64,000 bases of DNA. It comes from Escherichia coli. GTDB taxonomy: Bacteria; Pseudomonadota; Gammaproteobacteria; Enterobacterales; Enterobacteriaceae. Both the position numbers and the translations under genes were made by a program. Location: the NCBI RefSeq assembly GCF_003334785.1, contig NZ_QOWV01000002.1. One strand, given 5' to 3'. Under the pieces are notes generated by a model. It had not been told where the DNA came from, searched no databases, and saw only the letters and a program-made list of their open reading frames with translations. This document shows, piece by piece, positions 27,598 through 59,877 of the stretch; position 1 is the stretch's first letter, and every line of letters begins with the position of its first letter.

Positions 27598-27780
27598 TTG
27601 TAGGCCGGATAAGGCGTTCACGCCGCATCCGGCAACAGGAGCCAAATGCCGGATGCAACGCTGGCGCGTTTTATCCGGCCTACAATAAGCTCAACATACT
27701 GATTTGTATGGTTTTGTAGGCCGGATAAGGCGTTCAAGCCGCATCCGGCGACAGGAACCAAATGCCGGATGCGTCTCTGG
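27598..27780. repeat. BIME: cluster of about four REP units in alternating orientation
   Basis: Repeated TGTAGGCCGGATAAGGCGTTCA(C/A)GCCGCATCCGGC units between convergent mglC and preA. Confidence 0.85.
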
Positions 27781-53225: not shown

Positions 53226-55229
53226 TCATCCTTGTTGCTGAAGCATGGGGAATAATTGTTCGCAAAGCAAAACACCGTTATTCATTGCTTCTACCCGTGC
53301 CTCGCTTTCTGTATTACGAAATTGTGCCAACACATGTGCCAGCCGATAAAAACCCACCGCGGTGAGGTCATTCGCCAGCAACTCTGCCTGACTAATAGCG
53401 CTCTGTTCCTGATAGCGCCAGCCGTTATGGAGCAGTTGAATAAGTAACGCCTGGCAGCGCATCAGCAACTGATGAGCAGTAGACGGCACAGGCAGAACGC
53501 TGGTAGAAGGTAGTGATACCACCACAGGCGCAGTTTCTGCGTCCAGCGCCCAGGCACGAGTCTTTGTCATCATTACCTGTGGTTCCAGTGTCAATTGCCC
53601 ATCAACAAAACTGACAAAGCCAGAAACCAGATACACGGGGTCGTCTGTTTGTTGCAAAAGCGCCGCCATGCGTTCAACGGCATAAGGCGCGCTGGCTGAG
53701 GCTGGCAGTGATAACGTCAGCAGATTATCTTCACCTTCGCCGCTGATTACCTGCGCATCCAGCGTCTGGCGGCTGCTATCCCAACCGAGCGAAATACACT
53801 CAGCGACCGGCAGAATAAATAAGTTATCGACCTGATTAAGAGGCCGTATGCAGGCGGGGGGACGCTGGCGTAAATATTCCCGCAAAGCCACAATGCCCGG
53901 CTGGCGTAACGGCGCGCTCAACATTTGCCAGGCATCAGGCGACAGCGGCACAACGCTGCTTAAGCGGTTGCGGGTAGCTAACAGCAGCTCGCCATCGGCA
54001 CTGCGTTTTGCTGCTTGTGAAACAATTTGCCCGCCCGCCAGTGCGCCAGCCTGAAAACTAAACAGCCGACGCGTAGCTGCCGGTGAGTTTTCCTGTTCAC
54101 TTCGCGGCCAACTGCGCGAAAGGTGCAAAATACTGCCGGTGTCGGGATCGGTAAACCAGATGCGTAAACCATAATGCTCAATATCCTGCCAGCAACGCAT
54201 ACCTAAAGACACCAGCCGCAGATGATCAAGCTTTGCTTCTCCGGCAATGCCTGCGCCAACGACCGTGCGCCACGGCATGGGAGGAATTTCACCAACACTG
54301 TCGCGCTGCGCCATTTCGTGTGCGCAATTTAATCGACTGTTTAATGCGGCAAGCTGACACAAGCATTCTCCGGCATGATAATGGCTTGCGCGGGCGTGGA
54401 AGGCATCAACGCTGGCGCGCAGTTGCCGTAGCGATTCACTCACCCATCGCCAGTTGCAGCGTTCCGCCGCTTGCTGCGCGCGGCTGAAAGCGGCCTCGTA
54501 GTGAATAAGCGGCTGGCTGATGCCGCCAAGCCATAATGCCTGGCTTAATTGCTGAACATATTGACGACACGTTTGGCCTTCTTCGCTGGCAAACGGATCG
54601 TCAGATGATGTGACGTGTTCGCTGCGCATCTGCCAGATTAAATGGTTAAATTCTGCTTGCTGCGCTTTGGCCTCGACGAAGGCCTGTACCGCCAGTACGA
54701 TATGTTCGCAAAGAGTGCCTTCAATACAATCACAACGGGCGAAACGAATGCTGCTGCGGGAATAAAAACGCACATCGCTCATCGGTAAGCGGGCAGAGGG
54801 AATTTCGCCCGGCGTACAGAACAACTCAATGGTGATGCCTTTAGCGACCAGCGCCTGCGCGCGTTTGCGGGTGGCATCGGGCAGGGTAGCCAGTTCTTCC
54901 AGCCAGATTGCCGGATCCCACTCTTCTTCTTTTTCCGCAGGCTGGGCGGTAGCACAAAGTCGTTGATAACTTAACACCAGCATCACGCGATGACGGCACA
55001 TGCCGCTGGCCCCACAGGTGCACTGAGCCTCTTTCAGTGCCTGGCCGTTCGCCAGCTGGGTACGGACACCGTCACTGAAGGTGGCGATTAAAGCGCCGTT
55101 CTCATGGCTGATTTCCGGGACGTTGCCATTTTCCAGTTCCTTAAGGCTGCGCTTAACAAAACCGGCATTGCTTAACGCCGTCAGTGCCTGTGGTGTCAGT
55201 TCTAATAATTCCGGACGTAGTGAATTCAT
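53226..55229 (-). CDS. yehQ: SWIM zinc-finger-motif protein of the yehLMPQ cluster
   Basis: N-terminal CTCGASGMCRHRV (C-x-C...C-x-H); start at 55229 overlaps yehP stop (ATGA), alternative ATG at 55253. Confidence 0.85.
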   Translation of the reverse strand: MNSLRPELLELTPQALTALSNAGFVKRSLKELENGNVPEISHENGALIATFSDGVRTQLANGQALKEAQCTCGASGMCRHRVMLVLSYQRLCATAQPAEKEEEWDPAIWLEELATLPDATRKRAQALVAKGITIELFCTPGEIPSARLPMSDVRFYSRSSIRFARCDCIEGTLCEHIVLAVQAFVEAKAQQAEFNHLIWQMRSEHVTSSDDPFASEEGQTCRQYVQQLSQALWLGGISQPLIHYEAAFSRAQQAAERCNWRWVSESLRQLRASVDAFHARASHYHAGECLCQLAALNSRLNCAHEMAQRDSVGEIPPMPWRTVVGAGIAGEAKLDHLRLVSLGMRCWQDIEHYGLRIWFTDPDTGSILHLSRSWPRSEQENSPAATRRLFSFQAGALAGGQIVSQAAKRSADGELLLATRNRLSSVVPLSPDAWQMLSAPLRQPGIVALREYLRQRPPACIRPLNQVDNLFILPVAECISLGWDSSRQTLDAQVISGEGEDNLLTLSLPASASAPYAVERMAALLQQTDDPVYLVSGFVSFVDGQLTLEPQVMMTKTRAWALDAETAPVVVSLPSTSVLPVPSTAHQLLMRCQALLIQLLHNGWRYQEQSAISQAELLANDLTAVGFYRLAHVLAQFRNTESEARVEAMNNGVLLCEQLFPMLQQQG

Positions 55230-56362
55230 GACTGAAGGTTCTCTGCAAGCCATGATGCCAGCTCGCCCGGCGTCATGGCGGCTATTTGTGCGCCGACATT
55301 AACCAGCGCCTGGGCCGTATCGCGGTCATAGCAAGGCGTTGCTGTGCTATCGAGCGCTGCCAGTCCCAGCACTTTGATGCCGCTCTGGACACACTTTTTC
55401 ACCTGATGCGTCAGCAATGATGATGAACCCCCTTCATAAAAATCGCTCACGAGGATAATGACGCTTTTTGCTGGTTGTTCAATAAGTTGCCGACCATACT
55501 CCACGGCACTGGCGATATTGGTTCCGCCGCCCAGTTGTACTTTCATTAATAGTTCTACCGGATCGGCAACGTCTGCCGTGAGATCAACGACGCTTGTGTC
55601 AAACGCCACCAGATGGGTACGAATGCCGGGTAACTGCCACAAACAGGCCGCCATCACCGCAGAGTGGATCACCGAATCGACCATCGAGCCGCTTTGATCA
55701 ACCAGTAAGACCAGTTGCCATTGTTCGCTTTGGCGTTTAATGCGGCTGTTAAATCGGGGGGATTCGATATACAACTTGCCGTGTTGCGGGTGCCAGTGTT
55801 GCAGGTTGGCGCGCAGAGTACTTTTGAAATCAAAGTTTCGCGCCAGTGGAATAAATGAGCGGCGACGGCGATCGCGGACACCAGAAAAAGCCTGACGAAC
55901 TTCCTTTGCCAGTCGAGCCATAATTTCTTCAACAACCTGGCGCACTATCCGGCGGGCGGTAGCCAGTACTTCGGGGTTCATCAGATGTTTGGTATGCAAA
56001 ACGGCGCGTAGCAGGCTTTCAGAAGGCTGCATACGTTCCAGCACGTCGAGATTCGTCACCACATCTTCAATGCCATAGCGCAGTACGGCATCGCTTTCCA
56101 GCCGCTCAATCACCTGTTGCGGAAACAGCGTGTGAATACTGTTGATCCACTCAGGGGTGGTGAGATTTGAGCCACCTAATCCACCGGAGCGTTCACCACG
56201 CTGGAGCCGTTCAGGATCGCGCCCATACAGCCATTCCAGCGCGTGGTCTATCTGCCGGGCGTTGTCATCCAGCCCACAAAGCGTCGTTTCTGCCGCTTCG
56301 CCAAGAATTAATCGCCAGCGTTGTAGCTCACGGGGGGTCAGAAGATCGTTCAGTTCAGACAT
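55226..56362 (-). CDS. yehP: von Willebrand factor A (VWA) domain protein
   Basis: 378-aa ORF from MSELNDLLTPRELQ...; MIDAS-like DQSGS in C-terminal half. Confidence 0.88.
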   Translation of the reverse strand: MSELNDLLTPRELQRWRLILGEAAETTLCGLDDNARQIDHALEWLYGRDPERLQRGERSGGLGGSNLTTPEWINSIHTLFPQQVIERLESDAVLRYGIEDVVTNLDVLERMQPSESLLRAVLHTKHLMNPEVLATARRIVRQVVEEIMARLAKEVRQAFSGVRDRRRRSFIPLARNFDFKSTLRANLQHWHPQHGKLYIESPRFNSRIKRQSEQWQLVLLVDQSGSMVDSVIHSAVMAACLWQLPGIRTHLVAFDTSVVDLTADVADPVELLMKVQLGGGTNIASAVEYGRQLIEQPAKSVIILVSDFYEGGSSSLLTHQVKKCVQSGIKVLGLAALDSTATPCYDRDTAQALVNVGAQIAAMTPGELASWLAENLQS

Positions 56363-58634
56363 GGAAAACTCCCCAGTGTTGCAGCGATGCCAGTGCCTGC
56401 TGTTCGAGTTGTTGATGATGTGCAATGGCCTGTGGTGGACAATGCAACGGCATTTGCAGCGCTGAAACAGGAAGCTGCGCAAGCTGGTAATGCTCAAGCA
56501 CCTGATGCGCCAGCGTCCCGCGTTCTCGTGGCGGTAGCCAGGCCATTGCCGCGCGTAAATCGGGCAGGGCGTTAATAAAATCGTCGTCACTTAGTTGATT
56601 TAAATGACTGCTGAAACCGGCGATAAATGCAGGTTGACAGGCCAGTTGATGACGGGCTAATGCCAGCAAACCGTGCAGCGCCTCACCGGATTGTGCCGGG
56701 GATAACTGCGCCAGCATCGTCAGCGCCGCTTCGGCACTGGCGTTGGGATGTTCCAGACGCATTAGTGCGCCAAGAGCCGCGCCGCGATCCAGCGCCGGGG
56801 CATGAATCGCCTGACTGCGTCGCTCCAGTAAGGCTACCGCCGCAGAAAGAGAAACGCCGGGTAAATTAACGCCGCTATGTAGATCGCGCAGGATATGGCA
56901 AAGCGCTTGCCAGCTATGCAGGTGAGCGTGAAACTCCTTTTCATCCGGTCTGCCGTTAGATTCACACAGCCACAGCGTGCGATCGATAGCCGCGCATAAC
57001 GTCGTTTGTAATATCTGCGCGCCTTGCATACCGCTAATTTCATCCAGCCGCCATAAGGCATATAGCACTTCCAGCGCCTGGCCCATTTCGGCAAATTGAT
57101 TTTCCTGGGCGATTAATAATGTGAGTTGCTCCAGTAATTGTTGACTGAAGGACGCCAGACCCGCTAACGCCGCCTGGCTAAGACATGTGGTGATACTGCC
57201 GATTCCACCCGTGTCCAGCATATCGGCTTCTAATTTATGGCGTGCGGCTTCCTGGAGTGTTGCACCAAAGCAGGCGGCCTCAATCAATGCCGCATGCTGG
57301 CTAAGCGGGCGGGTTAATTTCCAGTGTTCTTCACCGTTGCCTGCAAGTGTCAGTGTACTTCCCTGCTGGCGTACAATCCCTGGGATCTCCAGTATTGCCA
57401 GCCGATGTAACACCTGACTTTGCGCTAGTCCATTGGGGTTAAAGCGATTTAAGGTAAGCTCCGCCGGAAGAGAGATTGCGGTACGTTCCAGTTCGCAGGT
57501 GACATCTTTTGGCAGAGGCGGTTGTGGCGTAGAAGGGGCAAGTTTACCGAATCCGTCACCCGCTAATGTGTCTATCAACGTTAGCAGAATCGGATCGGTA
57601 TCGGGATGAATAACGCCGCGATAGCTCCACGGCAACGGCGCATTCAGGGCTTCTTTAATCAGCGAGCCTGCTAAGGCATCCAGCCAGTCAGTGCGTAACG
57701 GTAGTGTATGACCGCGCAACTGTGCCAGCGCCATCGCATGCAGATGAGCGGCAGCCATATCCGCGGTAGAAGCGGGCAATTTGTGCTGGCGCAAACGGGT
57801 AAGGATAGTTTTTAGCAGTTGTTCACCGGCCTTCTGCAAGCCCCACTGCCAGCACCAGTTTTGCCATACCGGGGCAGGCATTCCTGAAAGGTATCCTGCC
57901 AGCACATCAAGGCGCTTTTCACTGTAGGGTGTGAGATAACAACCTGTAACGGCATCTGCCAGCGAGGGCAATTCTGGCTTGTTAATTTCCTGAGGGCATT
58001 CGCGCCACATCTTTGCCAGTGCCGGAGCGTGCCAGCCACCGCAGACAACCAATACGTCGCCATCATTTTGCTGCATCGCCCATCCAATCCAGCGGGTCAT
58101 AAAGGCTTCGCGCTGACGATTGAGTACATCGCCGGGGGAATCGCCGCGCAGTTGGGCAAAATAGTGCGCCAGCGCAGAGGGTAATGCAATTTGCTGGCTT
58201 TCATCTTCGAACAAGTGATCCCACAGGGTGTCGCTGTTATCCATGCGGGTGGCACGCAGCAGCAAGGTCTGGCTTTCCTCTTGCGTATCAGGCGAATCGT
58301 CCTCTTCTTCACTCTGCGCCCAGCAAGGCAAATCGATGAAGTAAGTTTGTGCCTGAATACAACGAGCGGCTTGTAGCGCCTGCCACTCCGGCGAAAATTC
58401 AGCAAATGGCGTCCAGGCACCACGCCCGGGGGCTGCACCGTCCTGATACTGGCAATAACTGTAAATAGCTACCGGAAGCTGGTGGGCTAAAAACAGTTCG
58501 TCTACCCGGTCATTAAAATCAGCCGGGCCTTCAATCAACACGTATCGTGGCCGCTGGCTTTCGATTAACGATTTCACCAGCCGGGCGCAGGCCGGACTAT
58601 GATGCCGGATGCCGACAATTAACGGCTCGCTCAT
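56355..58634 (-). CDS. yehM: Large uncharacterised protein of the yehLMPQ cluster
   Basis: 759-aa ORF from MSEPLIVGIRHHSPACARL...; Ala/Leu-rich, probably alpha-helical; 2-nt gap to yehP. Confidence 0.85.
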   Translation of the reverse strand: MSEPLIVGIRHHSPACARLVKSLIESQRPRYVLIEGPADFNDRVDELFLAHQLPVAIYSYCQYQDGAAPGRGAWTPFAEFSPEWQALQAARCIQAQTYFIDLPCWAQSEEEDDSPDTQEESQTLLLRATRMDNSDTLWDHLFEDESQQIALPSALAHYFAQLRGDSPGDVLNRQREAFMTRWIGWAMQQNDGDVLVVCGGWHAPALAKMWRECPQEINKPELPSLADAVTGCYLTPYSEKRLDVLAGYLSGMPAPVWQNWCWQWGLQKAGEQLLKTILTRLRQHKLPASTADMAAAHLHAMALAQLRGHTLPLRTDWLDALAGSLIKEALNAPLPWSYRGVIHPDTDPILLTLIDTLAGDGFGKLAPSTPQPPLPKDVTCELERTAISLPAELTLNRFNPNGLAQSQVLHRLAILEIPGIVRQQGSTLTLAGNGEEHWKLTRPLSQHAALIEAACFGATLQEAARHKLEADMLDTGGIGSITTCLSQAALAGLASFSQQLLEQLTLLIAQENQFAEMGQALEVLYALWRLDEISGMQGAQILQTTLCAAIDRTLWLCESNGRPDEKEFHAHLHSWQALCHILRDLHSGVNLPGVSLSAAVALLERRSQAIHAPALDRGAALGALMRLEHPNASAEAALTMLAQLSPAQSGEALHGLLALARHQLACQPAFIAGFSSHLNQLSDDDFINALPDLRAAMAWLPPRERGTLAHQVLEHYQLAQLPVSALQMPLHCPPQAIAHHQQLEQQALASLQHWGVFHV

Positions 58635-58644
58635 GCATCTTTCC

Positions 58645-59733
58645 TCACGGCAGGCGGTGGCGGGCTTGATAATAAGCCTGCCAGTGAGCTTCTTTATGTG
58701 TGGCGACACGCTGTTCGAAGTAACGGCGCAGACGAGCGCGATCTTCTTCATTATCTTTGACGATGGTTCCGGCAATGCAGTCCACCAGGTCGGCTGGCTC
58801 ACCTGCGCGATTCGCTAAAAACCAGGCGCGGACGCCCACTGCGTGGGCCACGTTCACGGCTTCAGCGGTGGACATAATTGCCGTCAGGGTATCCATTGAC
58901 GTTTTCTTTTCGCCGTTGGCACGCAGATCGCGGAAGGTGCGGACCAGTAACTCCAGTACCGCGTCAGGCACTTTATGCGGAATACCGCTATGGGCCAGCA
59001 AACGCGCCGAAGCACTGGCGACCAGTTCCAGCTCCTGGGCGAAATCCATAATCGGAAAGACAGTTTCAAAATCGAAGCGACGCTTTAGCGCGGCACTCAT
59101 CTCATTGACGCCGCGATCGCGGGTATTGGCAGTGGCAATAATATTAAAGCCTTCTCGCGCATAGAGCTGACTGGCTTCACTGGTGAGTTCCGGCACCGTC
59201 ATAACCCGGTCAGAAAGCATACCTAACAGACAGTCTTGCACTTCCAGCGGTGTACGCGTTATCTCTTCAAAACGGACGATTTTGCCGTCGCGCATTCCCT
59301 GATAAAGCGGGGCAGGGACCAGCGCTTCCGTTGACGGACCATGATTGATAAGCAGGGCGTAGTTCCAGCCATACTTGATTTGATCTTCGGTGGTAGATGC
59401 CCCGCCCTGGATGGTTAACCCGGCATCGCCGCTAATAGCGGTTGCCAGTAATTCAGACAGGAGAGATTTTGCGGTGCCAGGTTCCCCCACCAACATCAAA
59501 CCGCGCCCGGTGGCAAGAGTGACTAACATACGTTCGACAGCAGAGGGACTAATCACCACTTTACGGCTAATATTTTGCGCGCTATCGCCAAGGATAAAAG
59601 CACGGGCCGCAGGCAAACTTAACTGCCAACCGGGCGGGCAAGGTGCGTTATCATTTTGTTTTAATTTTGCCAGTTCATCGGCGTATAACACAGCGGCAGG
59701 CGGACGCTGCAGATGATTATTCTGCGGTGACAT
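58645..59733 (-). CDS. yehL: MoxR-like AAA+ ATPase
   Basis: 362-aa ORF from MSPQNNHLQRPPAAV...; Walker A GEPGTAKS; AAA_5-like core. Confidence 0.88.
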   Translation of the reverse strand: MSPQNNHLQRPPAAVLYADELAKLKQNDNAPCPPGWQLSLPAARAFILGDSAQNISRKVVISPSAVERMLVTLATGRGLMLVGEPGTAKSLLSELLATAISGDAGLTIQGGASTTEDQIKYGWNYALLINHGPSTEALVPAPLYQGMRDGKIVRFEEITRTPLEVQDCLLGMLSDRVMTVPELTSEASQLYAREGFNIIATANTRDRGVNEMSAALKRRFDFETVFPIMDFAQELELVASASARLLAHSGIPHKVPDAVLELLVRTFRDLRANGEKKTSMDTLTAIMSTAEAVNVAHAVGVRAWFLANRAGEPADLVDCIAGTIVKDNEEDRARLRRYFEQRVATHKEAHWQAYYQARHRLP

Positions 59734-59843
59734 ATATTCATCCCTGAAATGTATTAATGAAATAAACGATATTTTACGCGCAATAAATGTTTGGCGCATT
59801 AGTTGTTTGAGCGGAAAATATCTGGAAAGCAGATCACAGTAAA

Positions 59844-59877
59844 TAAAAAAACCTGCTGGTGAGGCAGGTTCTTTTAT
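59844..59877 (-). terminator. Rho-independent terminator downstream of yehK, upstream of yehL
   Basis: On minus strand AACCTGCCTCACCAGCAGGTT hairpin followed by TTTTTTTATTT. Confidence 0.75.

Follow-up and report, generated by a model that had tools for sequence, protein, structure and literature searches.

We analysed a 64,000-nucleotide (nt) stretch of Escherichia coli DNA (contig NZ_QOWV01000002.1 of RefSeq assembly GCF_003334785.1), referred to below as the window, with a focus on the yehLMPQ gene cluster. The window is a segment of the E. coli chromosome in which yehI, yehK and yehLMPQ lie on the minus strand, followed by yehR, yehS, btsR and btsS. An earlier note on this DNA had placed the four genes on the minus strand at 53226-59733, and the Prokaryotic Genome Annotation Pipeline (PGAP) agrees: gene lengths and junctions in two E. 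coli RefSeq/PGAP records are identical to those read here. Coordinates of the genes and of all features discussed below are collected in Table 1.

The four genes are tightly packed, with two of the junctions differing from what had first been reported. The spacer between yehL and yehM is 10 nt long (TGA-GGAAAGATGC-ATG), not 11, and contains a Shine-Dalgarno sequence (TGAGGAAAGATGCATG). Between yehM and yehP there is not a gap of 2 nt; stop and start overlap by 8 nt (ATGTCTGA, 56355-56362; identical in PGAP). The third junction is the 4-nt ATGA overlap between the yehP stop and the yehQ start that the note had described. Tight, translational coupling of the four genes, as proposed there, holds at all three junctions. 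Terminator-like sites inside the cluster are in no excess over shuffled sequence (14 vs. 9.5 ± 3.2).

To place the cluster in a wider context, we scanned one genome per Genome Taxonomy Database (GTDB) species for its pattern, which yielded at least 600 stretches, at least 543 of them encoding YehM relatives. We analysed the best 80 loci, all from other species and drawn from Enterobacterales, Burkholderiales, Xanthomonadales, Myxococcota, Actinomycetota and a Thermoanaerobaculia metagenome-assembled genome. Homologs of YehL, YehM, YehP and YehQ follow one another in the same order and on one strand in all 80, at intergenic distances that are approximately zero or negative throughout. In about 72 of these loci, the yehL homolog is directly preceded by one to three tandem genes resembling molR and yehI; Burkholderia has such a gene downstream instead. 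The linkage spans Proteobacteria, Myxococcota, Actinomycetota and Acidobacteriota. In distant homologs with precomputed Pfam assignments, the unit reads [WGR + DUF4132]-AAA_5-DUF5682-VWA_CoxE-SWIM, with genes that abut or overlap slightly (4-11 nt in locus L086). Because the order is kept at every locus and the MolR/YehI-like gene at most, yehLMPQ forms a core that does not vary, to which a MolR/YehI-like protein is very often added as a fifth element. What was first taken for a four-gene arrangement is a five-part unit.

Two kinds of domain occur in the fifth element. Among 97 long MolR/YehI-like open reading frames (ORFs), 58, from 51 loci, begin with a WGR-type N-terminus (...KFWEVE...WGRIGT.GQ...). 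E. coli MolR has one as well: PGAP names it "WGR domain-containing protein," its N-terminal 70 residues match PDB entry 2ra8 (1.2e-17) and, weakly, the WGR domain of PARP3, and distant homologs have a precomputed PF05406 assignment in Pfam. YehI is a MolR paralog without WGR whose C-terminal part matches DUF4132 (E = 6.3e-46); the copy in the window is normal and 99.3% identical to that of K-12. YehK matches nothing in Pfam and is without a homolog at the 80 non-Escherichia loci. Together with the orz small RNA (sRNA) gene described in the last section, which marks the boundary, yehK appears to be an Escherichia-specific insert between yehI and yehL, and neither belongs to the conserved system. 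When the flanking ORFs of the 80 loci were clustered for a sixth conserved gene, only generic ABC-transporter ATPases recurred, at inconsistent positions.

In the literature searched, there is no mention of DUF5682 or yehLMPQ and no functional study of yehL, yehM, yehP or yehQ; what exists on these genes covers the yehP frameshift, de-repression in H-NS mutants and MoxR classification only. The note's statement that no function is known for the arrangement stands within that literature. That the cluster exists and is of the MoxR/VWA kind was known before; it is the combination of partners that the searched literature does not describe. We tentatively read the system as a nucleic-acid-sensing, ATP-gated remodelling or hydrolase machine that may act in genome maintenance or in response to DNA damage.

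Table 1. Positions of genes and features in the window (aa, amino acids; residue numbers refer to the encoded protein)
Feature	Position	Strand	Details
yehL	58645-59733	-	362 aa; MoxR-type AAA+ ATPase (proposed motor); from start-codon context
yehM	56355-58634	-	759 aa; DUF5682 protein; from start-codon context
yehP	55226-56362	-	378 aa; from start-codon context
yehQ	53226-55229	-	667 aa; from start-codon context
YehL Walker A, GEPGTAKS, residues 83-90	59464-59487	-	invariant in 80 orthologs
YehL Walker B, IVRFEE, residues 152-157	59263-59280	-	F-E-E invariant in 80 orthologs
YehL sensor-1, ATANTRD	59116-59136	-	conserved in 80 orthologs
YehL ALKRRF	59074-59091	-	conserved in 80 orthologs
YehP MIDAS, D222-Q-S224-G-S226	55685-55699	-	
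YehP MIDAS, T281	55520-55522	-	
YehP MIDAS, D307	55442-55444	-	
yehP +1 ribosomal frameshift cassette, GTGGAGTATGGTCGGC	55489-55504	-	exact match; 0 expected by chance
YehM alpha/beta domain, residues ~1-245	57900-58634	-	predicted structure
YehM first GxxH motif, G8-I-R-H11-H12	58599-58613	-	R10, H11 invariant; H12 at least 90%
YehM L-I-E35-G-P motif (Glu after strand 2)	58524-58538	-	L33, E35, P37 invariant
YehM second GxxH motif, G199-G-W-H202	58029-58040	-	G199, H202 invariant
YehQ SWIM finger 1, C70-T-C72-GASGM-C78-R-H80 (CTCGASGMCRH)	54990-55022	-	
YehQ SWIM-like finger 2, C166-D-C168-IEGTL-C174-E-H176	54702-54734	-	Pfam E = 0.16
YehQ beta-rich region, residues ~331-561	53547-54239	-	predicted structure
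yehK	60040-60357	-	105 aa; Escherichia-specific insert between yehI and yehL
yehI	60418-64000	-	DUF4132; first 16 codons beyond window end
OrzO-P-like antitoxin sRNA	59845-59920	-	Rfam RF02083, 101 bits vs. gathering score 60
sRNA unit (promoter, sRNA, intrinsic terminator)	59843-59962	-	
Sigma-70-like promoter of the sRNA	59962-59934	-	
Terminator hairpin, AACCTGCCTCACCAGCAGG + TTTTTTT	~59843-59870	-	

Domain composition of the core proteins

YehL matches Pfam AAA_5 over residues 79-220 (E = 4.6e-34), and YehP matches VWA_CoxE over residues 151-372 (E = 3.2e-72), which bears out the first assignment of a MoxR-type AAA+ protein and a von Willebrand factor A (VWA) protein. The motifs named at that stage (GEPGTAKS in YehL, DQSGS in YehP and C-x-C...C-x-H in YehQ) are all present at the translated positions. 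On its profile, its motifs and its adjoining VWA gene, YehL is classed as a MoxR-type AAA+ protein of the AAA_5 kind. Across 80 orthologs there is little or no variation in its Walker A, hhhFEE and TANTRD motifs or in the arginines of KRRF, and its Walker B ends in Glu-Glu where Asp-Glu is usual. The nearest solved relatives by sequence are the AAA domains of Midasin/Rea1 (3e-10), then MoxR 2r44 and McrB. NCBIfam returned weak, sub-cutoff matches only (GvpN, MadB, McrB) and names no function. The YehL subfamily of MoxR proteins was reportedly named by Snider and Houry, in a paper said to date from 2006. YehL is the uncharacterised type member of this subfamily, one of seven in the MoxR family (PMC3893208).

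YehP is helical in its N-terminal region, has its VWA domain at the C-terminus and, judged by its sequence, is a VWA protein with a complete metal ion-dependent adhesion site (MIDAS): D222, S224, S226, T281 and D307 are each invariant in 78 orthologs. A YehP homolog sits in the same operon as YehL at 78 of the 80 loci, the exceptions being truncated contigs. The yehP gene also contains a +1 ribosomal frameshift cassette, and frameshifting at this cassette has been demonstrated experimentally with reporter fusions (PMC2790909). The frameshifted product would be 303 residues long and would be cut inside the VWA domain, just ahead of MIDAS residue D307.

VWA proteins are generally expected to serve as adaptors and stimulators of their MoxR ATPases (PMC3893208), and the known pairs are instructive in what they share with yehLMPQ and in what they lack. 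RavA-ViaA, the other MoxR-VWA pair of E. coli, likewise places a MoxR AAA+ gene beside a VWA/MIDAS gene in one operon. However, RavA belongs to another MoxR subfamily than the AAA_5-type YehL, the pair has no counterparts of YehM, YehQ or MolR/YehI, and no client comparable to its Nuo, Frd and LdcI is known for yehLMPQ. CbbQ-CbbO, NorQ-NorD and CoxD-CoxE also combine an AAA+ ring with a large adaptor that has a VWA/MIDAS domain at its end; the CoxE VWA family includes YehP, and the long adaptor of the CbbO/NorD type resembles YehM plus YehP, which are fused in some lineages. The genes of these systems adjoin those of their clients (Rubisco, NO reductase and CO dehydrogenase), whereas no such neighbour appears in the 80 yehLMPQ loci, and yehLMPQ instead has nucleic-acid-type and hydrolase-like domains.

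This comparison leads to an alternative in which the cluster encodes a maturation or cofactor-insertion chaperone of the CoxD-CoxE, NorQ-NorD, CbbQ-CbbO, CobS-CobT or BchI-BchD type. The His/Glu/Asp cluster of YehM would then be a binding site for a metal or tetrapyrrole, with MolR/YehI as the client or as a large subunit that holds the substrate. As far as is known, biochemically characterised bacterial MoxR-VWA pairs each mature a specific enzyme complex (PMC3893208). The CoxE affiliation of YehP, its weak, sub-cutoff match to a cobaltochelatase model in NCBIfam (5.9e-4) and the fact that ChaN, the top structural match of YehM, binds haem all point the same way. The gene molR owes its name to a molybdate-utilisation phenotype described long ago; K-12, however, uses molybdate normally in spite of its molR pseudogene. 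The inspected flanks of the 80 loci show no metalloenzyme, transporter or cofactor-biosynthesis gene that is consistently linked, and maturation leaves the WGR, SWIM and OB-like modules, the tandem paralogs and the fast evolution of YehQ and YehI unexplained. We consider it improbable.

YehM is a DUF5682 protein (Pfam E = 3.3e-97) whose AlphaFold model (predicted local distance difference test, pLDDT, 92.8; predicted template-modelling score, pTM, 0.90) shows an alpha/beta domain at the N-terminus, a mixed middle and, from residue ~445, a C-terminal helical solenoid that is HEAT-like. The earlier note's "large helical protein" is thus a misnomer for the first ~245 residues, which model as an alpha/beta domain with invariant catalytic-type motifs. 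In an alignment of 84 homologs (28-89% identity), R10, H11, E35, H51, E83, D101, E143, R175-E176, G199 and H202 are invariant within the first ~200 residues. G8-x-x-H11, E35 and G199-x-x-H202 are compatible with the "two GxxH plus Glu" signature of the TIKI/TraB superfamily.

Searches with the predicted structure gave ChaN (2g5g) as the top match and a TraB-family protein (8bqs_DQ) level with it (9.7 each), then HopBA1 (8.9), the Ere-like structures 2rad (8.4) and 2qgm (7.5), and EreC, PMT and RRSP (7.1 each); the HEAT-like scaffolds VPS35, symplekin and PP2A-A ranked lower. These fold matches are moderate in strength. They suggest that the N-terminal domain of YehM probably has the same fold as ChaN, TraB, TIKI and erythromycin esterase, as a distant member, and they make YehM a candidate hydrolase. 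We file it under the fold and not under any of the families because it has no sequence-level Pfam match to them. Relative to the TIKI/TraB/PrgY/ChaN/erythromycin-esterase superfamily, which includes HopBA1 and the RRSP protease domain, YehM has the additional invariant residues H51, E83, D101, E143 and R175-E176. Its domain also sits in a 759-residue cytoplasmic scaffold tied to a MoxR-VWA engine, a context undescribed for the superfamily. Sequence and profile searches of the PDB returned noise or nothing for YehM, as they did for YehP, YehQ and YehI.

Several divergent lineages encode YehM and YehP as one natural DUF5682-VWA fusion of ~1170-1185 residues (proteins P0353, P0378, P0387, P0350 and P0342). 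In P0378, residues 813-1178 are 53% identical to residues 13-376 of YehP. One locus with a fusion (L084, 10001-13540) reads AAA_5, DUF5682-VWA and SWIM, with no DUF4132 neighbour. With these fusions and a conserved overlap between the yehM stop and the yehP start, YehM and YehP may be regarded as a putative single structural adaptor-effector unit.

YehQ has a SWIM-like motif at its N-terminus, as first noted, and a second one further on. Pfam SWIM gives two marginal matches (E = 1.3e-3 and 0.16). In finger 1, the CxCx5CxH pattern holds throughout 55 orthologs, with C70, C72, C78, R79 and H80 invariant; in finger 2, D167 is invariant and the cysteines are not invariant in all. With the finger 1 signature complete and the profile match marginal, we class YehQ by sequence as a SWIM protein. 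Its model (pLDDT 92.7, pTM 0.90) contains two small SWIM units, two helical bundles, one of them C-terminal, and a beta-rich region. The beta-rich region weakly matches the OB folds of RPA32, Stn1, Teb1 and SSB, and Foldseek also aligns it, again weakly, with tandem OB modules (RPA70-AB, HIN, LEF-3 and POT1), with eIF5A and EF-P ranked lower. The alignments with RPA70 DBD-A/B, POT1 and HIN extend over ~230-290 columns, and the likeness is at fold level only (~10% identity, E of 1e-3 or worse). On the model, YehQ likely carries a tandem OB-fold region, which it joins to two SWIM fingers and helical bundles, unlike those proteins.

The relationship to Midasin suggests a further alternative, a "split midasin" that remodels ribonucleoproteins (RNPs), stripping factors from or placing them on ribosomes or other RNPs, with OB, SWIM and WGR domains binding RNA. 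The AAA_5-type domains of Midasin/Rea1 are the best solved match to YehL, a MIDAS adaptor is present in YehP, and Midasin uses its MIDAS to grip a client by an acidic residue and pull the client off a nucleoprotein particle. OB folds bind RNA too, and the translation factors eIF5A and EF-P are among the lower-ranked matches. Midasin differs in being a single chain of ~5000 residues with six AAA modules, whereas motor and MIDAS are separate small proteins in yehLMPQ, and its clients have ubiquitin-like (UBL) domains, of which none is known for yehLMPQ. The best OB matches of YehQ are the DNA binders RPA, HIN and POT1, a patchy distribution and the losses in K-12 and Shigella weigh against a core ribosome role, and no translation gene is linked except the chance neighbour metG in Escherichia. 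An RNP remodeller therefore strikes us as very unlikely.

Conservation, divergence and loss

Of 5,426 complete E. coli genomes, 5,363 have a match to the cluster. In 5,203 (~96%), 80% or more of it is present, as a single chromosomal copy at a fixed site, and the remaining 223 are without a near-complete copy. Cluster identity is only 90-95% in 563 genomes. The flanking btsSR genes are present in all 5,426 and are below 95% identity in almost none. The molR-yehI region is even more diverse within E. coli than yehLMPQ and lies far above btsSR in this respect. Ratios of nonsynonymous to synonymous substitution rates (dN/dS) against K-12 are 0.05 for yehL, 0.04 for yehP, 0.16 for yehM and 0.22 for yehQ, showing that the cluster is under purifying selection. 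Full-length forms dominate the protein collection (14,594 and 4,681 members for the 759-residue YehM; 11,049 and 4,644 for YehQ of 666 or 667 residues).

Some strains have lost parts of the system. In K-12 MG1655 (locus L002, 9001-11001 and 19832-23627), codon 615 of yehQ is a stop within the gene and molR carries a frameshift, so phenotypes of Keio-type mutants probe a system that is already broken, which accounts for how little standard resources have told about it. Strain EH09-18-41 (L001, 16193-20940) has a deletion of ~2.7 kb, which has left a molR-yehI fusion pseudogene, and deletions have removed yehM, yehL and zorO from lineages 2 and 3 of Shigella sonnei (PMC12795559). The region is also silenced: expression of yehL and yehM rises in hns/stpA mutants, and H-NS is bound at the adjacent intergenic region (PMC3686432). 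Together with the 223 genomes mentioned above, these observations could describe a silenced, decaying remnant of horizontal acquisition that no longer functions in E. coli. We regard this as highly improbable, in view of the low dN/dS values, the prevalence of full-length YehM and YehQ, the invariance of catalytic-type motifs across phyla and the retention of the cluster in most complete E. coli genomes.

Across species, the parts diverge at very different rates. Median identity to the E. coli protein is 64% in Actinomycetota and 86% in other Enterobacterales for YehL, and 58% and 79% for YehP. The corresponding values are 38% and 62% for YehM, 27% and 55% for YehQ, and ~34% (over part of the length) and 37% for YehI. 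The engine is extremely conserved, and the peripheral YehQ and YehI are fast-evolving and sensor-like.

This pattern brings up the possibility of an anti-phage or conflict system, in which YehQ and/or MolR paralogs would sense nucleic acid or protein of an invader, and MoxR-VWA would then remodel the complex and set free YehM, a latent peptidase-like effector that would kill or arrest the infected cell. Published MoxR-vWA counter-invader systems consist of a MoxR protein, vWA-peptidase effectors and a fast-evolving sensor (PMC7159879, PMC12839542). The ternary conflict systems surveyed by Kaur, Burroughs, Iyer and Aravind (2020, PMC7159879) resemble yehLMPQ in joining MoxR to a vWA-linked, peptidase-like effector and a diverging sensor, and both are rich in Actinomycetota, Myxococcota and other large-genome bacteria. 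In keeping with this idea, the VWA protein is fused to a TIKI-like protein in some lineages, YehQ and YehI evolve fast, DUF4132 genes occur as one to three tandem paralogs, and molR-yehI is far more diverse in E. coli than btsSR. The cluster, which H-NS silences, is patchily distributed and frequent in soil bacteria with large genomes, and HopBA1, RRSP and PMT use the probable YehM fold as a toxin effector. YehL also has a partial, weak match to Pfam bpMoxR (E = 0.002).

Several observations argue in the other direction. The third components of the published systems (VMAP, beta-propeller, iSTAND and FtsH-like) are all absent from the cluster, whose partners are DUF5682, SWIM/OB and WGR-DUF4132 proteins. 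The published effectors vary, whereas the putative yehLMPQ effector seems to be a single conserved domain: YehM-YehP, with a constant TIKI-like domain, is the only fusion observed, and no variability of the effector was seen in the 80 loci. The survey does not mention SWIM, WGR, YehL, DUF4132 or TraB, and the cluster lies outside it. PADLOC-DB v2 returned nothing at E ≤ 0.01 and, at E ≤ 5, only a 9-bit match to YehL. The cluster occupies one fixed site in E. coli, unlike variable defence islands, and neither recurrent nor defence-type genes occur in the inspected flanks. Of 72,556 plasmid records only 43 have the cluster, and most of these are megaplasmids or chromosomes with a wrong label; among 50,697 phage records there is one weak match and none that carries YehM. 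Seven PHROGs entries (phrog_30700, 33984, 31592, 29006, 20839, 36602 and 36295) match YehM, YehP, YehQ, YehI and YehK at full length and near-identity; we rejected them as phage genes. Because their profile lengths equal those of the E. coli proteins and no real phage YehM was found, they are probably chromosomal DNA in over-extended prophage predictions. The defence role that the note had entertained thus receives no direct support from PADLOC, phage, plasmid, fixed-site or flank evidence, and we think a conflict system rather unlikely.

A proposed nucleic-acid-triggered mechanism

We return to the reading that we favour, though with limited confidence, in which the system would sense nucleic acid and act in genome maintenance or in response to DNA damage. 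This context is preferred because the unit carries three independent nucleic-acid-type modules, because the best OB matches are DNA binders and because molR is in the SOS regulon. In the proposed mechanism, YehL would be an ATP-hydrolysing AAA+ ring that pulls on YehP, and YehP an adaptor that would grip an acidic residue of its partner through its complete MIDAS site. YehQ and the WGR domain of MolR would be the fast-evolving recognition parts that bind nucleic acid. The hydrolase-like domain of YehM, on its HEAT-like scaffold, would be the probable catalytic output. As a first step, YehQ and/or MolR may bind an unusual DNA or nucleic-acid structure, such as single-stranded DNA, breaks or damage-associated nucleoprotein. 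YehP would then engage, and the YehL ATPase would remodel the assembly. Finally, remodelling would license YehM to cleave a substrate, most likely a protein. The analysis itself establishes the domain identities, the conserved motifs, the linkage of the genes, the fusions, the purifying selection and the distribution; the nucleic-acid binding, the hydrolase activity, the order of these events and the link to DNA damage are what we infer.

The link to DNA damage is drawn because E. coli molR is a published LexA target: molR is among the LexA-regulated genes with a known SOS box (PMC6590174). In a related strain, a LexA-box-like CTG-N10-CAG site (CTGGATAAAATTACAG) precedes the ATG of molR by 10 nt (L001, 20950-20965), beyond the limits of the window. 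The molR promoter is in addition activated by BglJ-RcsB (PMC3950696). The note's suggestion of a stress-related role finds some support in the literature through this SOS membership and the de-repression in hns/stpA mutants. Intestinirhabdus alba has an E. coli-like site (CTGGATGTATGCACAG) where its YehI-like gene starts (L008, position 4035). A recurrent sequence, CTGGGAAGTGGAGCAG, was rejected as a LexA box, as it is the coding sequence of the WGR motif FWEVEQ.

It is important to set out what weighs against this account. The SOS box is upstream of molR, and yehI, yehK and the terminator of the sRNA lie between molR and yehLMPQ. Searches upstream of the operon in other taxa with LexA motifs of gamma/beta-proteobacteria, Actinobacteria and Xanthomonadales gave nothing beyond chance except in Intestinirhabdus, and the SOS link of molR may be specific to Escherichia. 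SWIM and WGR domains are able to mediate protein rather than DNA contacts, and ChaN is a haem binder, not an enzyme. In Pfam, YehM matches DUF5682 only, with no match to TraB, Cofac_haem_bdg or Erythro_esteras even at E ≤ 10. The MolR/YehI-like gene is absent near four or five loci with enough flank, as well as near the fused variant. Moreover, the yehQ and molR pseudogenes of K-12 and the loss of yehL and yehM in S. sonnei mean that the system is dispensable under some conditions.

With still more reserve, we advance as a speculative possibility that WGR-DUF4132 proteins and YehL, YehM, YehP and YehQ, as a set conserved between E. coli and Actinomycetota, represent a previously unrecognised class of nucleic-acid-triggered, ATP-gated hydrolase machine, in which a "split midasin" with a TIKI-like protease would target proteins associated with DNA when the genome is damaged or invaded. 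If this is true, the set would be the second MoxR system of E. coli and the first of the MoxR-VWA kind to be connected with DNA transactions. Should the DNA link hold, it would bring MoxR-VWA proteins into genome maintenance or nucleic-acid immunity for the first time and give the TIKI/TraB fold a new context. Nearly all E. coli and hundreds of further species have the cluster, and four genes with y-names now form a system with proposed roles.

An OrzO-P-like small RNA gene upstream of yehL

The earlier note had described a strong terminator that insulates the cluster from yehK. The hairpin and its T-run are real; they end an independent gene for a type I antitoxin-like sRNA, however, and are not a simple insulator. 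This gene has its own sigma-70-like promoter, and its product scores well above the gathering threshold of the OrzO-P family in Rfam (Table 1). At the same site, O157:H7 has two orz copies together with the 29-residue zorO and zorP. The window contains no zorO or zorP ORF, and its orz gene is therefore an orphan copy.

The yehK-yehL spacer varies in length across E. coli, measuring ~1.24 kb in O157:H7 and 307 nt in the window. Counting from yehL, the spacer of the window is 96.5% identical to the initial 289 nt of the one in O157. Rfam has two more matches in other parts of the window, both on the plus strand: naRNA4 (nucleoid-associated ncRNA 4) at 27603-27680 (88 bits) and a Peptidase-S11 cis-regulatory RNA motif at 39329-39409 (73 bits).

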